The notes under the pieces are model-generated. The model saw only the letters and a list, made by a program, of their open reading frames with translations. It made no database searches and had not been told where the DNA came from. The position numbers and the translations under genes are program-made. This document shows positions 42,131-64,000 of a DNA stretch of 64,000 nucleotides, one piece after another (the stretch's first letter is position 1; every line of letters begins with the position of its first letter). Origin of the DNA: Alphaproteobacteria bacterium (GTDB lineage: Bacteria > Pseudomonadota > Alphaproteobacteria > UBA828); contig CAXXVO010000004.1 of NCBI GenBank assembly GCA_963422645.2, forward strand, positions 602,539-666,538, written 5' to 3'.

Positions 42131-43957
42131 ATATACTTACCAGCGACTCGAGATAGCTCGGATGCATTCGTGAACGCTAACGCCCACGAACGCTGGCCTT
42201 CCTCTGGTGCCCCGAACCGCTAAATTCGCTAACCGAAGCATGCTGTCGTCGGCCCGCGGGGTAGGACGCTTCTGCCTGCGCTGGCCGGGTCTCGTCGTCT
42301 TCGCTGTCGTCATCGCGTTCTCAGCGCTTCTTTCTACCCTCGTCGGGCCTCAGTCCCATGCCCAGAGCCAAGACACGAATGCTACCGATATTTGGGTCGA
42401 CGACGGTGGGAATGTAGAGGCAAGCACGTCCACACTGACGATCAACGAAGGAGAGACCAAGAGCTACAGCGTGCGGCTTACGAAGCAACCACACGAGGGA
42501 GCCGATCAAGACTGGTGGGTCATGATCGTGGTCGACGGCCATCGGCGCCCCGCCAGCCACTATCCTGATGAGAAGAATCCGATCGTCAGCTGGTCACCAT
42601 CGATCGGCAGAACATTCGACAAGGGCGACTGGGACCGATGGAAAGACATTTCAATAACGGCGCACCAGGATGACGATGATGATGATCACACAATAATCTT
42701 TTCCTCCGAACTGTGGGATCACGACGCCTACTGTCCTCCAGACTTGCATGGGGGTGGCACACCCCTGGCGATGGTGACCGTCCACATTATTGACGACGAT
42801 GGCGACTTGCCGAGCCTGTCTATCGATGACACGTCGGTCGACGAGGGAGAGGAGGCAGAATTCGTCGTAAAGCTGAGCAAGGTGAGTGACGAAACCGTCA
42901 CGGTGAGGTACGCGACGTCGGGAGGAACCGCCACCGAGGGCACGGACTACACCCGTGAAACCGGCTCACTCACCTTCGACCCTGGCCAAACACAAAAGTC
43001 CGTCGAAGTGCAGACGAGGGAGGACGAGCGCGACGAACCGAACGAGGAGTTCTCCCTAACCCTGAGCAACCCCGACCGCGCTGCGCTGAGCAGGGGCACG
43101 GGAACCGGGACGATCACCGACGACGACGATCCGACTCTCTCCATCGCGGATGCGACACCGGTGGTCGAGGGCGGGACGGCACAATTCGTCGTGACGATGA
43201 GCATAGAGAGCACGCAAAGCGTGACGGTTACCTACGGGACGAGGAGCGGGACGGCAGTCGCGGGACAGGATTTCGAAACGACGTCAGAGACACTGACTTT
43301 CGGCGGGATCAACTCATCGCTAACCCAGACCATCTTCGTGCCCACAATCGACGACCTGATCGACGAGGAGGACGGGAAGGAGTTCACGGTAACGCTGAGC
43401 AGCCCGAGTGGCGGGACGATCAAGTCGGGCGAAGGCACCGCGACAGGGACCATCAACGACAACGACGATGCGGCTCTTTCCATCGCGGACCTCGTGACGG
43501 TGGGGGAGGGAACGACCGCGCGGTTCGACGTGACGCTAGACCCGACAAGCGACCGGATCGTGACAGTGGCTTACCAGACGATGGGCGTAACGGCCACAGA
43601 AGACGTGGACTACACCGGGGCGAACGGCACTCTCACATTCTCGCCCGGCGAATCAATCGAGACCATCGACGTGTCGACCACACTTGACGAGATTGCTGAG
43701 TCGGATGAGACGTTCACGGTGACCTTGAGCAGCCCCAACGGCGCCACCCTCTCGAACAGCAGCGGAACGGGGACGATCACCGATACTGACGTGCCGGAGA
43801 TCTCAATCGCAGACGCGGCGCCGGTGGTGGAAGGAGGCACAGCCGAGTTTACCGTGACGTTGAGCATGCAGAGCACGCGAGAGGTGACGGTCGGTTTCCA
43901 GACGGTGGACGAAACAGGGGCTGGAAAGGCCACACCGATCGCGGACTACAACAAAAT

Positions 43958-45837
43958 GTAACTGCCCAGGTTCTTGCTGTGAAAATTCTCTGGGATTCGG
44001 CACAACGCTACCCACGCGACGCCCGTGTGCTCCTCTGGGGTCGCCGGGTTTCACAGCTCACGATGCCCCTCTTGCGGACTGCGACCGGTAAGCTACCCCG
44101 ATGTGGCCCGAAGTCCGCCCGCGCGACGGGCACCGATTTTCATTCTATGGGGTGGTCCAGCACGGCGTCGACCATGATCGTTTATGAGAATGGCTCCGCT
44201 GTTGGAGAACCCGTGCCAGGTGAGCTTACGCGCACTTGACGGTGGCGATGAGCCGATCCGATGGGCTGGTCAGGGCTTCGATGATATTCCAGCCCTGCTT
44301 TCTGGCGGTGGTGATGACGCTGCGCAGGATGGCGAAGTTCTCGGCCCCCTGCGCGGACCGGAAGCCCCCGGAGATCTTCTGGCGCAGCTTCATCATCCGA
44401 AGGTCGCGCTCGGCCTCGTTGTTCGTGAACCCGACCTCGAGGTCGATCAGGAACCGGAGCACCGCGCATTTGTGGTCGCGCAGCCTCAAGGCCGGATTGT
44501 GACCGATCCTTCGCTTCCGGCGCTTCTTCCTCTTGCCAGGCGAGAACGGTGGTTGGCTCTCGTGAAAGGCCAGCGCATCGGCGATGATCTCGTCGTATCG
44601 GCGCTCGATCAGCGCCACAAGCCTCGCCGGAACGGCGATATCCTTGTCCAGCGCGATGCGGGCGGCGCGATTGGCTCGGCGCAGGAGCTGCTGCATCCGC
44701 CGGGCCCAAGCCTCCCCTTCGATGTCCACCAGCGCCTGCAACTCCCGCAGGTGATGGGCGTTGCACAGGCCGTGCTCCACCCCTTCCATCGCGAAGTACG
44801 GCTTCCAGTGATCGTGCACGACGATGCCGGAGACACCCGAGAGCAGGGCGCCGCGCTTGCCGCTGACCCGGTACGCCGCCAGCAGCGGCGTGCAGATCAC
44901 ATGAAGCCACTGCGTCTGACCGCCGATCCGCAAGCCGGTCTCGTCCATGTGTTTCACCCGCGCCGTGCCCGCCGCCAGGTCCTGTATGTGCAAGGCCGCG
45001 TCCCGCAAGCCGCTCGGCCGCCCTCTCGCTCATCGTCGCCAACGTCGCAGCCGTCACCGGCGCGCCGAAGAGCTCGGCCATCACCTGCGACAGCCGATCC
45101 TCCGGCAGGAAGTGAGCGTGCTGAAGGTAGACCGCCACCCCGGCAATGCGCGGGCCGTACTGCACCGGCGCCGACACCCCGTCGGGGAACGCCGCCCGGG
45201 TCACCGTCCCGCAATGCCCGCAGCACTTGGCATGCGCCCGGTGCTCGGTCACCTCCAGGGGGCTCGGCTCGGGCAGATCGAACACCTGGCGGGCGACGGG
45301 CGTTCCCGCCCTGGCCGCGTCCGAAAGCGGCGAACCGCATCCCTTGCAGGAAGCCGGGACGTGATCCTTCACCCGATCCGGGTGATCGGCGCGGCGCAGC
45401 GTCTTGCCCTTGTGGCCGGGCTGGCCACCGGGCTTGCGGCCCGATTTGCCGCGCAGGCTTCGGGTTCGCCGCTTCGAATTCGGCTTCCTCAGCCCATCGC
45501 TCGAAGGCGGCTTGCCGCTGTTGAGGCCGAGACGGCGCTCCAACTCCTCGATGCGCTCGACGAGACGCGCGACTTGCTCTTCCAGCCGCGCGTTCTGCTG
45601 CCGAAGCCAGGCATTTTCCTCCCGAAGCCGGGCGTTCTCCTCCTCCAGGCGGGCGATCTTCTGCGCGGGCGTTTCGGGCGCTGCTCCCGTCGAAGGGCCG
45701 CGCGGCGACTCGGGATTGCTCATGTCGTTGTTGAGTCATTTCCCGAAATTCCCGTCAAGCCCTTTCCACCAACTCCGAACGAGAAACGCCTCAATCCACT
45801 GGCCCAAAATGACAAATCAGACGACCTGGGCAGTTAC
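43958..45837 (-). mobile_element. IS66-family element (single tnpC, ISBst12-like), frameshifted, copy 1
   Basis: GTAACTGCCCAGGT IRs, AACAAAAT 8-bp duplication; KPPSSD, GGQPGHKG, DETG, CNAHHLREL, TNNEAERDLR. Confidence 0.94.
43974..44183 (-). mobile_element. Non-autonomous IS110-derived mini-element nested in the IS66 3' end
   Basis: First 46 nt match the IS110 left end at 58452-58497 (35/46 by manual alignment); internal 18-mer 17/18 identical to 56838-56855; ends TTTCACAGCAA versus TTTCACGGCAA. Confidence 0.78.
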
Positions 45838-47670
45838 AACAAAATTGCGTCGGGATCACTGACCTTTCTCGCGAACACTGCGCAACTAACCATGACGATC
45901 CAGGTAAATACGATCGACGATACGGAAGGCGAGCCGCCCGAGACTTTCAAGGTGAGGCTGGTCAGCTCAAGCAATGGGGAGTTAAGCAACAGTAGTAGGG
46001 AGGGCACCGGGACCATCAACGATAAGGACGGCGGCAACGGTGGGAACGGAGGCGGCGACGGCAACGGAGGGAACGGAGGCGGCGACGGCAACGGAGGGAA
46101 CGGCGATAACGGCGGCGACGGCGACGGCAACGGTGGCGGTGACGGTGACGGAACAGACGGTAGCGGCGGCGGCGATGGCGGAACCGACGGGAATGGCGGT
46201 GGCTCCGGCGGCGGTGACGGTGACGGCGGCGGTACCGGGACACCGACGGATGGCGGGACGACCGAACAAGATGCGCAACGGCGCTTCGAGGCGGCCAACC
46301 AGACAGTCCTTCCGGGGCTCGGGAAGGCGCTGGCGTTCACCGCCGTGCGCTGCCGCATCGAGCAAGCGTTCTCCGATATGTCTCGCGGCTGGGCGAACCC
46401 GTCCATCAGCTCGGCGTTTGGGCCCGCACTGCCACCTCGAAATTACACACCGATCCCCAACGAGTGGGCCGATACGCACGGCGACTCGCTCACGCCGGAG
46501 CAAGTGCTCGGCAACACCTCGTTCCTGCTGCCCCTGATCGGAGGTGACGGCAGTACGCTTCGCTTCGCGACATGGGGTTGCGGCGACTACCGCAGTCTGG
46601 CCGGCGACGGCGGGGTTGATGCCGGGGCCTGGGACGGCGAGGCCTTCAGCATGCAGGTGGGGGCCGACGCGATCGTCGACGATAACCTGCTCGCCGGCGT
46701 GTCTCTCTCCCAGTCGCAGGGCTCGTTGGACTTCGACGGGGTGGCAAGCGGCAGCGGGCCGGCCGGCGGCGGCTACGATCTGCAGATGACCGGGGTCAAC
46801 CCTTACTTCGGGCTGTGGCTGTCGCCCGATATCGAAATCTGGGGGACCCTCGGTCTCGCCAGCGGAGAGCTCCAGGTTGCGGATGACGCCGCCGACTCTT
46901 CACAGACGAGCAAGGCGACGCTGGCCTCAGGTACGGTGGGCGTCAACGGGCGGCTATTGCAGCTTGGAGGGACGTCGCTTCGACTCAAGGGTGAGTTGGG
47001 CCTCGCGAACTTCGATGTTTCGAGCACGGCTGCGTTGCTCCGGGGCGCAGACCTGAACCTGCAGCGGTTGCGCGTTGCAGCTGAGATCGAGCACGAAGAG
47101 ATCGTCGAGAATGTCGGCGTGCTCGTCCCCTGGGGGGAGCTGGGTCTGCGCCACGACGGCGGCGATGGAGAGAACGGCTCCAGCGTGGAGCTCGGCGCCG
47201 GCCTGCACTTCCGAAATATTGAGCAGGGCTGGAACGCGGAGCTCTATGGCCGCTGGGTCCTGGCGCAGGACGATGCGCTGCCGGAAGAGCAGGGGTTCGG
47301 CCTGCGCTTCCGCTACAGCCCGGAGGCGCCCAACTTCGGCCCGTGGGTGAGCCTGTCGCAAACCTGGGGCGAGCCGGCGAGCGGCTTGCAGCAGCTGTGG
47401 GAGGACGGGCTGCGCGCCTCGGCTACGGACGACCCGCTGGCAGGGCGCCTGGACCTGGAGATTGGCTACGGCTTCCCGGCGTTCAGGGAACAGGGCGCGC
47501 TGGTACCCTTTGGCGCGTTGAGCTTGGGGAACGACGGTGAGCGGAGCTACAGAGTGGGCAGCCGCCTGGTGCTGGGATCGCTAGGCGTCCTGAGCCTCGA
47601 GGCGGAGCGCCGCGAATACGCCTCCACGCCGACCCACCACGCGGTCATGCTGCGGGGTATCCTCCGCTAC

Positions 47671-56693: not shown

Positions 56694-56891
56694 GATCCGC
56701 ACTCCCTGGTTATCGGTTATCGATTTTTTGCCGTGAAACAGATTCTGGCGAGGGACGCGCGGTGACGCTCCAACCCCGAGGTCACGGCGTTGGCTGAGAC
56801 CGCCAGGGTCGGCGCGGCGGAGACGAGCGGTGGACTTCCCCGATGTGGTCCGAAGCGGTCCCGCGTAGCCGGCTGACGAGATGCGGGCCGC

Positions 56892-58142
56892 TCAGGCGGC
56901 CTTGAGTTCCGCGCCTACGGGCTCGATGTAGCCGTAGCGGCGGAGCATGCGGATCCACCGAGGAGCGTTGCGCTTGACCATCAGAGCGTCGTAGTCGGCC
57001 GTGCGGTCGTAGTAGGGCCTGCCGGTCTTGAGCACCACATAGATGATGCGCAGCATCTTGTGAGCGCCGGCGACGATGGCGCGCTTGTAGCCGCGCCGGG
57101 CGGCGAGGGCGCGGTGATGAGCCTCGAACTGGCACCCCTTGGTTCGGGCCGCGCCGTGGGCACACTCGACGAGGCAGGCGCGCAGGGTCTTGGAGCCCAT
57201 GCGGGTGCGTGCGTTGCGGCGCTTGCCCCCGCTCTCGTTGTTGCCGGGGCAGAGCCCGGCCCAGGCGGCGAAGTGCTCCTTGGAGGCGAACACGCCGATG
57301 TCGGGGCCGATCTCGATGAGGATGGTCGAGGCGGCGGTGCGGTCGATGCCGGGGATGGTGGTCAGCAGACGGAGCTGCTCCTCCCACGGTGTCATCTGCC
57401 CGTCGATCTTCCTGGTGTAGGACGCGATGCGCGCCTCAAGCGCGTCATGCTCCTCCAGCAGGTCGTTGAGCATGAAGCGGTCGTTGTCGCCCAGGCTCAG
57501 GGTGAGCGCCTCGCCGAGCCCCTCCAGCTTGTTCGCAACGTGGCTGGTGAGCGAGGCGAGGATGACCTCGCGCGCCGTCCCCTGCGCCAGGCCGTCGAGG
57601 ATCTTCCGGCCGTTGACGCCGAAGACGTCGGAGAGGATGCCGCCGATGCGCGCACCGGCGCGGTCGATGATCTTCTGCACGCGGTTGCGCACGGCGGAGC
57701 GCTGCCTGACCAGGACGCGGCGCTGGCGGCTCAGTGCGCGCAGCTCCCGGAACGGCTCAGGCGGAACGTGGGAAGGCGTGCAGAGCCCGAACTGGCACAC
57801 GCAGGCCAGCCACACGCTGTCCGCCACGTCGGTCTTGCGCCCCTTCAACTGCTTCACCTGACGCGCATGCACCAGGATCGCCTCGAGCCCGGCCGCCTCC
57901 AGGGCCGCGAAGGGCGCCTGCCAGTAGACCCCGGTCCCTTCCATCACCGCAGCCTCGACGCCGTGACCGGTCAGCCACGCGACCATCTCCTCCAGACCGC
58001 TCGGCAGCGTGCCGAAGCAGCGCGTCTCCACCACCGGCTCACCCTCGCCCTCACAGAGGCGAACCGTCGCGGTGATCTCCATCTTGTGCACGTCCAGACC
58101 CGCCGCGCGCGGCCGGACGACGTGCAAGCCTTCCGTCTTCAT
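56892..58142 (-). CDS. IS110 DEDD transposase/recombinase
   Basis: GLDVHK, MEGTGVYW, KTDVADS, TIPGI, WAGLCPGNNESGG; GAGGAGG RBS. Confidence 0.96.
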   Translation of the reverse strand: MKTEGLHVVRPRAAGLDVHKMEITATVRLCEGEGEPVVETRCFGTLPSGLEEMVAWLTGHGVEAAVMEGTGVYWQAPFAALEAAGLEAILVHARQVKQLKGRKTDVADSVWLACVCQFGLCTPSHVPPEPFRELRALSRQRRVLVRQRSAVRNRVQKIIDRAGARIGGILSDVFGVNGRKILDGLAQGTAREVILASLTSHVANKLEGLGEALTLSLGDNDRFMLNDLLEEHDALEARIASYTRKIDGQMTPWEEQLRLLTTIPGIDRTAASTILIEIGPDIGVFASKEHFAAWAGLCPGNNESGGKRRNARTRMGSKTLRACLVECAHGAARTKGCQFEAHHRALAARRGYKRAIVAGAHKMLRIIYVVLKTGRPYYDRTADYDALMVKRNAPRWIRMLRRYGYIEPVGAELKAA

Positions 58143-58167
58143 CGCCTTCCTCCTCATTTGCGCTCTC

Positions 58168-58450
58168 GCCACGGCGGCGTACGATCACGCCGTGGCATCG
58201 CCACGGTGGAGGCGGGGACAGCGGTCGGAAGAACACGCATCCGACGAGCGGGTGCGGTGCAATTTGCCGCGCGTCCACGGCCACGGGCCGGGTACAATAC
58301 GGGGTGCGGAGCCGGCCGCCGGAAGCAGTTTTGTCATCGGGAACTACGTCACCGATATAACGACGCTCACACGTCCCCACCTCCGCCAATACCCATCCTG
58401 ACACGGCAAATGGGTGCAAGCGCAAGGAAAACGTCAGCCGAACCGCTCCT
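58168..58450 (-). ncRNA. Candidate bridge/seek RNA in the IS110 left end
   Basis: 15-bp long-range stem 58205-19/58373-87 plus inner hairpins; position matches described IS110 RNAs; expression not shown. Confidence 0.5.
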
Positions 58451-58641
58451 GTTTCATGCCACGGGGTGGCTCAGAACCGCGGGGACCATGACTGTTTTGT
58501 GCCGGGAGGCGCTCGCGGCGTCTTTCGCGACGCCGCTCAACCGGACTGTCCTAAAATGGCTCTCCCGGCTTTATGGTCCGAACCGTAGCACGGGGGCGGG
58601 CGAGTGGCGAGCGCACAGACTCCCTTCCCGATTGCGACGGC

Positions 58642-62179: not shown

Positions 62180-64000
62180 GTAACTGCCCAGGTCGTCTGA
62201 TTTGTCATTTTGGGCCAGTGGATTGAGGCGTTTCTCGTTCGGAGTTGGTGGAAAGGGCTTGACGGGAATTTCGGGAAATGACTCAACAACGACATGAGCA
62301 ATCCCGAGTCGCCGCGCGGCCCTTCGACGGGAGCAGCGCCCGAAACGCCCGCGCAGAAGATCGCCCGCCTGGAGGAGGAGAACGCCCGGCTTCGGGAGGA
62401 AAATGCCTGGCTTCGGCAGCAGAACGCGCGGCTGGAAGAGCAAGTCGCGCGTCTCGTCGAGCGCATCGAGGAGTTGGAGCGCCGTCTCGGCCTCAACAGC
62501 GGCAACAGCGGCAAGCCGCCTTCGAGCGATGGGCTGAGGAAGCCGAATTCGAAGCGGCGAACCCGAAGCCTGCGCGGCAAATCGGGCCGCAAGCCCGGTG
62601 GCCAGCCCGGCCACAAGGGCAAGACGCTGCGCCGCGCCGATCACCCGGATCGGGTGAAGGATCACGTCCCGGCTTCCTGCAAGGGATGCGGTTCGCCGCT
62701 TTCGGACGCGGCCAGGGCGGGAACGCCCGTCGCCCGCCAGGTGTTCGATCTGCCCGAGCCGAGCCCCCTGGAGGTGACCGAGCACCGGGCGCATGCCAAG
62801 TGCTGCGGGCATTGCGGGACGGTGACCCGGGCGGCGTTCCCCGACGGGGTGTCGGCGCCGGTGCAGTACGGCCCGCGCATTGCCGGGGTGGCGGTCTACC
62901 TTCAGCACGCTCACTTCCTGCCGGAGGATCGGCTGTCGCAGGTGATGGCCGAGCTCTTCGGCGCGCCGGTGACGGCTGCGACGTTGGCGACGATGAGCGA
63001 GAGGGCGGCCGAGCGGCTTGCGGGACGCGGCCTTGCACATACAGGACCTGGCGGCGGGCACGGCGCGGGTGAAACACATGGACGAGACCGGCTTGCGGAT
63101 CGGCGGTCAGACGCAGTGGCTTCATGTGATCTGCACGCCGCTGCTGGCGGCGTACCGGGTCAGCGGCAAGCGCGGCGCCCTGCTCTCGGGTGTCTCCGGC
63201 ATCGTCGTGCACGATCACTGGAAGCCGTACTTCGCGATGGAAGGGGTGGAGCACGGCCTGTGCAACGCCCATCACCTGCGGGAGTTGCAGGCGCTGGTGG
63301 ACATCGAAGGGGAGGCTTGGGCCCGGCGGATGCAGCAGCTCCTGCGCCGAGCCAATCGCGCCGCCCGCATCGCGCTGGACAAGGATATCGCCGTTCCGGC
63401 GAGGCTTGTGGCGCTGATCGAGCGCCGATACGACGAGATCATCGCCGATGCGCTGGCCTTTCACGAGAGCCAACCACCGTTCTCGCCTGGCAAGAGGAAG
63501 AAGCGCCGGAAGCGAAGGATCGGTCACAATCTGGCCTTGAGGCTGCGCGACCACAAATGCGCGGTGCTCCGGTTCCTGATCGACCTCGAGGTCGGGTTCA
63601 CGAACAACGAGGCCGAGCGCGACCTTCGGATGATGAAGCTGCGCCAGAAGATCTCCGGGGGCTTCCGGTCCGCGCAGGGGGCCGAGAACTTCGCCATCCT
63701 GCGCAGCGTCATCACCACCGCCAGAAAGCAGGGCTGGAATATCATCGAAGCCCTGACCAGCCCATCGGATCGGCTCATCGCCACCGTCAAGTGCGCGTAA
63801 GCTCACCTGGCACGGGTTCTCCAACAGCGGAGCCATTCTCATAAACGATCATGGTCGACGCCGTGCTGGACCACCCCATAGAATGAAAATCGGTGCCCGT
63901 CGCGCGGGCGGACTTCGGGCCACATCGGGGTAGCTTACCGGTCGCAGTCCGCAAGAGGGGCATCGTGAGCTGTGAAACCCGGCGACCCCAGAGGAGCACA
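62180..64000 (+). mobile_element. IS66 copy 2 (runs off window); frameshifted tnpC 62294-63800; IS110-derived mini-element from 63843
   Basis: Near-identical to 43958-45837 in inverted orientation. Confidence 0.94.

Follow-up and report, generated by a model that had tools for sequence, protein, structure and literature searches.

How does a 210 bp segment that resembles the two ends of one insertion sequence (IS) family come to lie in the tail of an IS of another family, and did it ever move as a unit of its own? The question is raised by a 64,000 nt stretch (hereafter the window) of contig CAXXVO010000004.1, positions 602,539 to 666,538 of the forward strand, in assembly GCA_963422645.2 of an Alphaproteobacteria bacterium of the lineage UBA828. 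Here an IS66-family element of 1,880 bp (43958-45837, minus strand), which we refer to as type A, carries within its 3′ non-coding tail the segment at 43974-44183 (minus strand), referred to below as the mini-element or mini. The original prediction, made from the letters of the window, held this segment to be a transposase-less derivative of an IS110 element that spreads by hitch-hiking on IS66. We arrive at a similar reading, to which we give a probability of roughly 85%: the 210 bp arose by deletion from an IS110-group IS and are a non-autonomous element akin to MITEs (miniature inverted-repeat transposable elements), which was mobile as a mini and is now probably a passenger of IS66. The source assembly is denoted G000, and three congeneric genomes G005, G011 and G014.

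Homology of the mini-element to both ends of IS110

The window also holds an autonomous IS110-group element of 1,770 bp at 56728-58497 (minus strand; IS110-A), whose 416 aa recombinase (56895-58142) matched PF01548 at 1.8e-23, PF02371 at 4.5e-21 and NF033542 with 270 bits against a cut-off of 140, and combines the DEDD/RuvC-like N-terminal domain with the Transposase_20 C-terminal domain by which the IS110 group is recognised. On the minus strand, IS110-A begins AAACAGTCATGG and ends GTTTCACGGCAA, the mini begins AAACGATCATGG and ends TTTTCACAGCAA, and the AA at either boundary of the mini may be counted to the element or to the target. The reverse complement of 43974-44183 was aligned locally with the IS110 ends and the scores were compared with those of 300 dinucleotide shuffles. 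Against the 360 nt of the left end the mini scored 37 (shuffles 19.0 ± 2.7, z = 6.8), against the 170 nt of the right end it again scored 37 (shuffles 17.5 ± 2.1, z = 9.2), and at neither end did any of the 300 shuffles reach the observed score. The left-end alignment starts at base 1 of both sequences and runs over 46 nt (44138-44183, minus strand, to IS110 bases 1-46) with 35/46 identities, taking in the motif AAAC-NN-TCATGG, a short hairpin (TGGTC...GACCA) and CCACCCC, whilst the right-end match is a 43-column block centred on CTTCGGRCCACATCGGGG. The conserved right-end block (..CGCGGG..CTTCGGGCCACATCGGGGTAGCTTACCGGTCG; 44082-44123, minus strand) is common to the 3′ non-coding region of IS110-A and to all of the solo minis described below, and is looser (GGGCCACAATCCAGGG) in IS110-B, a second autonomous relative from G011. 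The right terminus of the mini, TTTCACAGCAA at 43974-43984 (minus strand), reads TTTCACGGCAA in IS110-A, IS110-B and the G011 minis.

A profile built from five mini-family members and run over the whole 5.9-Mb source assembly returned 213 hits, which fell almost entirely into three places: IS66 tails (103 hits, 88 of them full-length, and a further 11 tail fragments cut by nested insertions), the right-end block of IS110 (48 hits, E ~3e-4) and the left end of IS110 (48 hits, E 0.15); the remaining three were weak (E > 1). The shuffle controls and the profile search together establish the likeness of the mini as genuine and as peculiar to the two ends of IS110. The coordinates and strings quoted in the original prediction were all correct, and the homology it had claimed, from terminus to terminus on the left and through the block on the right, withstood the shuffled controls that it had named as its test.

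Of an IS110 element the mini has retained ~46-60 nt on the left and ~150 nt on the right, with the right terminus, and a subterminal inverted repeat is there with its two arms (left arm TGAAAAT at 44136-44142, minus strand; right arm ATTTTCA at 43980-43986); at 210 bp it is too short for a recombinase gene. A sigma-70-like promoter match (TCGACG-18-TAGAAT, a match to consensus only) lies within the left end at 44142-44171 (minus strand) and reads into the mini; two sites were found, against a shuffle mean of 0.1. Rfam matched no family over 40000-64000, except for a weak, sub-threshold P10 small RNA (sRNA) hit inside the IS110 open-reading frame (ORF). RNAalifold of the five minis gave GC-rich helices on both strands (-51.7 and -55.5), from which we draw no structural conclusion beyond the left-end hairpin because the alignment holds five sequences of two subfamilies only.

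Empty IS66 ends, solo copies and spread with IS66

Does the segment belong to IS66 or was it added? On contig C17 of G000 an IS66 element 94.5% identical to type A ends ...CATCCCCATGAACAACCTGGGCAGTTAC (...GGAATCATCCCCATGAACAACCTGGGCAGTTAC) with no insert, and the short end without a mini, ...CATGAACAACCTGGGCAGTTAC, is found there and in the three congeneric genomes. In the IS66 relatives of G005, G011 and G014 (among 61 related genomes) similarity to type A ends at the mini boundary, or 12-15 nt before it, and all five loci that were read there continue as ...CAT(G/C)AAC(A/C)ACCTGGGCAGT(T/C)AC, in one case ...CAGAAACAACCTGGGCAGTTAC, and then pass into unrelated flanks, which with C17 makes six empty loci in all. 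The short end is therefore the norm of the IS66 family and the 210 bp are an insertion, placed upstream of the 14-bp inverted repeat and 16 nt in from the IS66 tip; what is left of the IS66 right end outside the mini, those 16 nt, reads GAACCTGGGCAGTTAC (43958-43973, minus strand). The empty alleles that had been proposed as a test of the prediction thus exist, in the same assembly and in its congeners. That the 210 bp are ordinary IS66 3′ non-coding DNA with a coincidental likeness to IS110 could be argued from blastn, which at E 1e-3 failed to link the mini with IS110, the link emerging only through local alignment with shuffles and through the profile, but this idea is refuted by the shuffle controls, the profile search, the empty alleles and the solo copies alike, and we regard its probability as negligible.

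Four such solo copies (L002, L007, L018 and L020), as independent of IS66 as the original prediction had hoped to find, are present in G011. They measure 207-213 bp, have the same left-end and right-end architecture, each begin (A)AAC-NN-TCATGG and end TTTTCACGGCAA, and differ from one another in their flanks; none of the four lies in an IS66 end. L002 is 87% identical to the G000 mini over the whole length, and L007, L018 and L020 form a second subfamily that shares 69-73% identity with the G000 mini and 88-93% among its own members. L007 interrupts a DDE_Tnp_1-type transposase gene, and L020 lies between a leucine-rich repeat protein gene and a recombinase fragment. The occurrence of one architecture at five unrelated sites implies that the deletion derivative itself has moved. 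The family has the marks of MITE-like elements: both termini are homologous to those of an autonomous element, there is no transposase gene, and it occurs at several unrelated sites with empty counterparts.

Deletion derivatives of IS elements are common, and a full-length IS110 might have entered the IS66 tail and lost its middle there, never to move as a mini, an account with which the lack of a solo mini and of a close parent in G000 would agree. Against it stand the four unrelated G011 loci with the same collinear architecture, the match of L002 along its whole length and the differing flanks of the G011 copies; independent deletions with the same breakpoints would be unlikely, and we judge this account improbable. 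As a separate observation, the transposase gene that L007 interrupts (G011:C3:3033038-3036246, minus-strand ORFs at 1721-2785 and 749-1555) carries DDE_Tnp_1_assoc and DDE_Tnp_1 with a fused DruA-like (Druantia) match upstream.

In G000 the picture is different in kind. Every one of the 103 type-A IS66 3′ junctions is followed by the mini, the profile search found no solo mini anywhere in the assembly, and the 8-mers that flank the 99 intact tails are of 93 distinct kinds, with the AT-richness at positions 2-7 that IS66 prefers in its targets. All amplification of the mini in G000 has thus been by IS66 transposition, as the hitch-hiking proposed in the original prediction would have it; the second copy of type A that the prediction named lies in the window at 62180-64000 (plus strand), with its mini from 63843 onward cut by the window end. 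We infer the following history. Minis would have moved as minis when a related autonomous IS110 supplied recombinase and bridge RNA in trans, the donor-binding loop of that RNA pairing with the conserved CACGGC-AA-AAC junction. One mini would then have entered the 3′ non-coding tail of the single-ORF IS66, 16 nt from the tip, once and before the IS66 burst; since then it has been copied passively at each transposition of its host, reaching ~100 copies.

Contigs from other sequencing runs agree with the arrangement. Type-A IS66 with its mini was recovered with no differences from runs X7, X9 and X6 (in two pieces in X6) and with two differences in a 1,782 nt contig of X8. The contigs of runs X6-X9, from which rare forms are dropped, held no joint that skips 43974-44183, no circle junction of the mini and no mini-free excised type-A allele of the form CTCAT-AA-GAACCTGG. 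The mobilisation in trans put forward in the original prediction is kept here as a proposal. One X8 contig joins IS66 position 45837 to 43958 through 8 other letters, which reflects either two IS66 copies that share a duplication or an IS66 circle junction.

Could the mini have been retained because it serves IS66, for instance as an outward promoter or terminator that would explain the success of type A? Mini-bearing type A stands at ~100 copies against one short-ended relative in G000, and a -35-like TTCACA lies 17 nt from the TAC of the IS66 tip. However, a -10-like hexamer is completed by only 10 of the 99 flanks, no terminator-like site was found, and a chance founder effect explains the copy number equally well, so that such a role seems to us extremely improbable; a hybrid outward promoter composed of the mini -35, the IS66 tip and the flank was rejected on the same 10/99 flanks. 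The mini in G000 is probably a passenger now and not an active element. Its right terminus has a G-to-A change within the stretch that the candidate left donor guide (see below) would match, and there are no solo copies despite 48 resident IS110-A, which together suggest that it has become inert.

Autonomous relatives, probable guide region and conserved ends

If minis moved in trans, which element served them? IS110-A is present in G000 in 48 copies with intact ends, all 100% identical. G011 has IS110-A at 94% nucleotide identity, as well as three copies of IS110-B, which shares 68% amino-acid identity with IS110-A. The left end of the mini is ~75% identical to IS110-A and to IS110-B alike, and the parent with near-identical ends that the original prediction had looked for was not found. 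A 28-mer mini pattern searched over genome contigs matched in G011 only, a 20-mer left-end pattern searched over metagenome contigs gave six chance hits, all in unrelated AT-rich DNA, and tblastn of the IS110-B recombinase in G000 returned only IS110-A (68% identity) and relatives at 26-33%. The minis, about as far from one as from the other, represent a third lineage, whose autonomous form was not found in G000, G011 or the genome and metagenome contigs scanned. An autonomous partner whose ends match was likewise not found beside the minis in their own genome. The short donor core CACGGC-AA-AAC is common to IS110-A, IS110-B and the G011 minis, and the G000 mini reads CACAGC. In a 151 nt contig of X8, 50 nt align with the left end of the mini with six differences, and the sequence diverges on both sides; it may come from another relative.

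IS110-A inserts at a short core, AA, with no long target duplication. Among 33 distinct left flanks 28 end in ACA (15 of these in GACA), 32 of 33 right ends read CACGGC-AA, and the target consensus is [G/A/C]AC-AA-A. The 355 nt non-coding left end of IS110-A precedes the recombinase, and a long upstream non-coding region together with a recombinase of such size is described as typical of the IS110 group (PMC11187229; PMC11208160). Positions ~110-290 of this left end (58208-58388, minus strand) can be aligned between IS110-A and IS110-B and share a predicted fold of 61 pairs, 41 of them invariant, 4 changed on one side, 5 compensatory and 11 broken. In each element an 8-mer of a predicted loop equals the left junction of that same element, GACAAAAC in IS110-A (58328-58335, minus strand; candidate left target guide) and TCAAAAAC in IS110-B. 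The left junctions of IS110-A read [G/A/C]AC-AA-AAC and the two readable ones of IS110-B TCAA-AA-AC, so the two elements differ in loop 8-mer and in left junction, and the loop 8-mer changes together with the target. By the published rule the left target guide pairs with the bottom strand (PMC11208160), and the loop 8-mer appears to behave as a left target guide with its adjacent bases should. A second loop of both elements has CGGCAAA, which equals the shared right end plus core, as expected of a left donor guide; the candidate in IS110-A is CGGCAAAT at 58262-58269 (minus strand). From these matches the bridge RNA would be encoded at left-end positions ~110-290.

This region has no counterpart in the mini, and no homologue of it was found in any of the five minis. 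Nor do they contain a 7-mer equal or complementary to their own junctions, except for a single 8-mer in L007, which is within chance expectation, as 20 tests yield one about half the time. The minis thus lack both recombinase and guide, and the original claim that the mini is without the recombinase gene and without most of the left-end region, where the bridge RNA probably resides, is borne out. One may still ask whether the part derived from the right end encodes a bridge or seek RNA of its own, in the manner of IS1111, with only the recombinase borrowed. From the left end, the promoter-like site points into a block that is conserved across the clade, the subterminal inverted repeat of 7-9 bp recalls IS1111 elements (Durrant 2024), and some IS110-type elements are reported to carry a long non-coding region downstream (Siddiquee 2024, PMC11187229). 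Yet none of the minis has a 7-mer that matches its own junctions save the chance-level one in L007, the 8-mers of IS110-A and IS110-B that resemble guides and change along with the junctions sit in the very region that minis lack, and there is no Rfam match; we consider a self-guided mini very unlikely. For the autonomous element too, a guide downstream of the recombinase as in IS1111-type elements was considered and rejected, the guide-like matches lying upstream.

TCATGG followed by the short hairpin, and CCACCCC, are common to the five minis, IS110-A and IS110-B, and so is the junction CACGGC-AA-AAC, with the exception of the CACAGC of the G000 mini. Left-end positions 5-6 vary freely (AG, GA, TT, GG), and the right-end block is present in all five minis and IS110-A. 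The arms of the subterminal repeat, of which the left one lies 40 nt in from its end of the element and the right one 6 nt, covary: left TGAAACAG and right CTGTTTCA in IS110-A, TGAAAGT and ACTTTCA in IS110-B, TGAAAAT and ATTTTCA in the G000 mini and L002, TGAAAATGT and ACATTTTCA in L007 and L020, with one mismatch in L018. Such conservation suggests that more is needed in cis than the 8-9 plus 4-7 nt which the donor loop would read. More speculatively, and in our view unlikely as a whole, the minis could be a natural deletion series that defines cis-acting donor determinants over and above those read by a bridge RNA, in a clade which needs sites recognised by protein or by structure at both ends, an IS1111-like trait in an IS110-type element, and the ~100 IS66-borne copies could be decoy donors; if so, these decoys would draw recombinase and bridge RNA away from the 48 resident copies of IS110-A.

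Several points weigh against the 210 bp being a once-mobile IS110 derivative. None of the autonomous IS110 elements met in G000 or in the genome and metagenome contigs scanned has ends close to those of the mini, and the assignment of the bridge RNA would depend on two lineages and on short matches. The solo copies are old and few, and the family occurs in only two genomes among the 61 and 21 searched. The assembled contigs, which drop rare forms, gave no direct sign of excision, circles or new insertions, and the copies were counted in an assembly whose contamination is estimated at 8.5% and which has some loci on two or three contigs.

Head-to-tail tandem arrays of IS110-A, with as many as five copies, also occur, and in 11 of the 48 copies the left flank is another copy. 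Arrays are found at G000 C11:48113-56956, C16:27177-32482, C10:44759-50065, C8:169702-173239, C8:727928-731466 and C5:476527-480065, with junctions reading CACGGC-AAACAG in six cases and CACGGCA-AAACAG in five. At one locus, whose outer flanks are identical, contig C19 has one copy, C8 two and C10 three. Either the right junction targets itself or donors recombine with donors, it would seem, together with copy-number variation or assembly redundancy. Two further IS110-A copies lie 1 and 4 nt from a type-A IS66 tip (G000 C21:59019-59022 and C8:776646-776652).

Known elements and the IS66 host

The closest comparison is with MITEPpu9, the A′-B′ module of the sRNA gene ssr9 of ISPpu9 in Pseudomonas putida KT2440, published in 2025 (PMC12288879), the only specific precedent that we found in the literature on IS110 and MITEs or non-autonomous elements. 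That study describes a transposase-less element bounded by A′ and B′ boxes of 43 and 16 bp, whose circles were shown experimentally with the transposase of the parent and which is characterised as a hitch-hiking selfish element (PMC12288879). Both elements are transposase-less with IS110-like ends (a 43-bp A box and 16-bp B box there, a 46 nt left stretch here), both occupy sites away from a parent, and for both the use of the parent's transposase in trans is proposed (PMC12288879). They differ in that the ssr9 sRNA gene is, in that account, complementary to an antisense RNA of the parent, whereas the mini had no significant complementarity to IS110-A when aligned locally, with shuffles, against its opposite strand (z = -0.26); in that MITEPpu9 is mostly found directly downstream of a parent with near-identical boxes, whereas no close parent was found here; in that the mini was amplified through an unrelated IS family, IS66; and in that circles are experimental there, whilst the mini is known from its sequence. 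In addition, one survey lists the ISfinder entry ISNme5_IS110 among MITE-like sequences. With MITEPpu9 as its precedent, the mini family adds a neat natural instance to a kind of element described not long ago, and does not found a new one.

Compared with IS621 and other IS110 elements with bridge RNA, as described in two studies (Durrant 2024, PMC11208160; Hiraizumi 2026, PMC13626964), IS110-A shares the DEDD and Transposase_20 domains and the long 5′ non-coding region. It likewise inserts at a short core (AA) with no long target duplication, and its loop 8-mers are identical to the left target and to the left donor, each taken with the core, like the left target and left donor guides described there (PMC11208160). 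IS110-A differs in its short target consensus, in the subterminal repeat 40 nt inside its left end and in the conserved non-coding block of its right end; the mini differs in having neither RNA nor recombinase.

Little has been published on gene-less derivatives of RNA-guided IS110 elements, of which the mini family is a second natural case. The comparison of five diverged minis with two autonomous relatives indicates which end sequences would be kept by selection when recombinase and guide RNA come in trans, and is relevant to how minimal donors for bridge recombinases are designed. It also illustrates a second route to high copy number, in that a dead-end passenger can reach ~100 copies inside an unrelated, active IS. 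It opens no new mechanism, and the steps by which minis would have moved are deduced from sequence comparison.

IS4321 and IS5075, of the IS1111 group, are said to insert into the terminal inverted repeats of host transposons, and the original prediction had called on them as a parallel. The likeness lies in a DEDD-family element beside the terminal inverted repeat of another transposable element, and in subterminal inverted repeats. Only one of five independent mini insertions is at an IS66 end, however, and that one is 16 nt inside the tip, and the parallel with targeting of inverted repeats fails; IS110-A sites show no preference for inverted repeats, and its recombinase is of IS110-group size (416 aa) with the long non-coding region upstream.

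The host itself is an IS66-family element by its DDE_Tnp_IS66 and zf-IS66 domains, its 14-bp perfect terminal inverted repeats (GTAACTGCCCAGGT) and its 8-bp target duplication (AACAAAAT at 43950-43957 and 45838-45845), and is of the single-ORF type that we take to be the ISBst12 group. The original prediction placed the transposase stop at 44182, which proved wrong: the DDE_Tnp_IS66 frame stops at 44226-44228 (TAA, minus strand) and the host spans 43958-45837. An extra T near 45007 splits the transposase gene in this copy, and copy 2 has one at the equivalent place; both are among the 17 of 66 full-length type-A copies with the extra T, whilst 48 of the 66 are without it and have an intact 501 aa transposase with a complete PF03050 domain. 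The 513 aa ORF that seems to end at the mini is a frameshift artefact, its N-terminal half containing DUF6444 and zf-IS66 with DDE_Tnp_IS66 in another frame; such misleading frames of 513 and 516 aa enter ORF lists because high GC keeps wrong frames open. The intact copy L047 matched PF03050 at 3.5e-39 (profile positions 3-283 of 284), as well as PF13005 and PF20042. Intact copies of the host resemble single-ORF IS66 elements of the ISBst12/ISGst1 kind in DUF6444, zf-IS66 and full DDE_Tnp_IS66 domains, in the 8-bp duplication, in GTAA termini and in leaving no space for tnpA or tnpB. The host differs from these relatives in a 3′ non-coding tail that is 210 bp longer (268 nt, 210 of them mini) because the mini is nested in it.

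The IS load of G000 is very heavy, with ~100 type-A IS66, two or more additional IS66 types (65-68% identical) in many copies and the 48 IS110-A, and the near-identity of copies within each type implies recent bursts. Within the mini, the AT-rich 8-mer TGAAAATC has nested insertions of other IS66-family elements that share ~68% identity with type A (G000 C11:31913-34618, where the duplication is clean; also C9:511248, C19:46419, C15:4195 and C16:40849). Two IS66 types have hit this 8-mer, and the nested elements thereby carry the last 184 bp of the type-A tail. A composite of such a 'type B' IS66 with these 184 bp, moving as a unit, was considered and rejected, as only the C11 case is clean (with TGAAAATC duplicated) and the others are truncated or rearranged. 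Finally, IS66 copy 1 interrupts a long ORF with repeated Calx-beta-like units (42207-43957 of the window, and 45838 onward), which resumes past the 8-bp duplication with what appear to be a glycine-rich region and an autotransporter-like C-terminal part.

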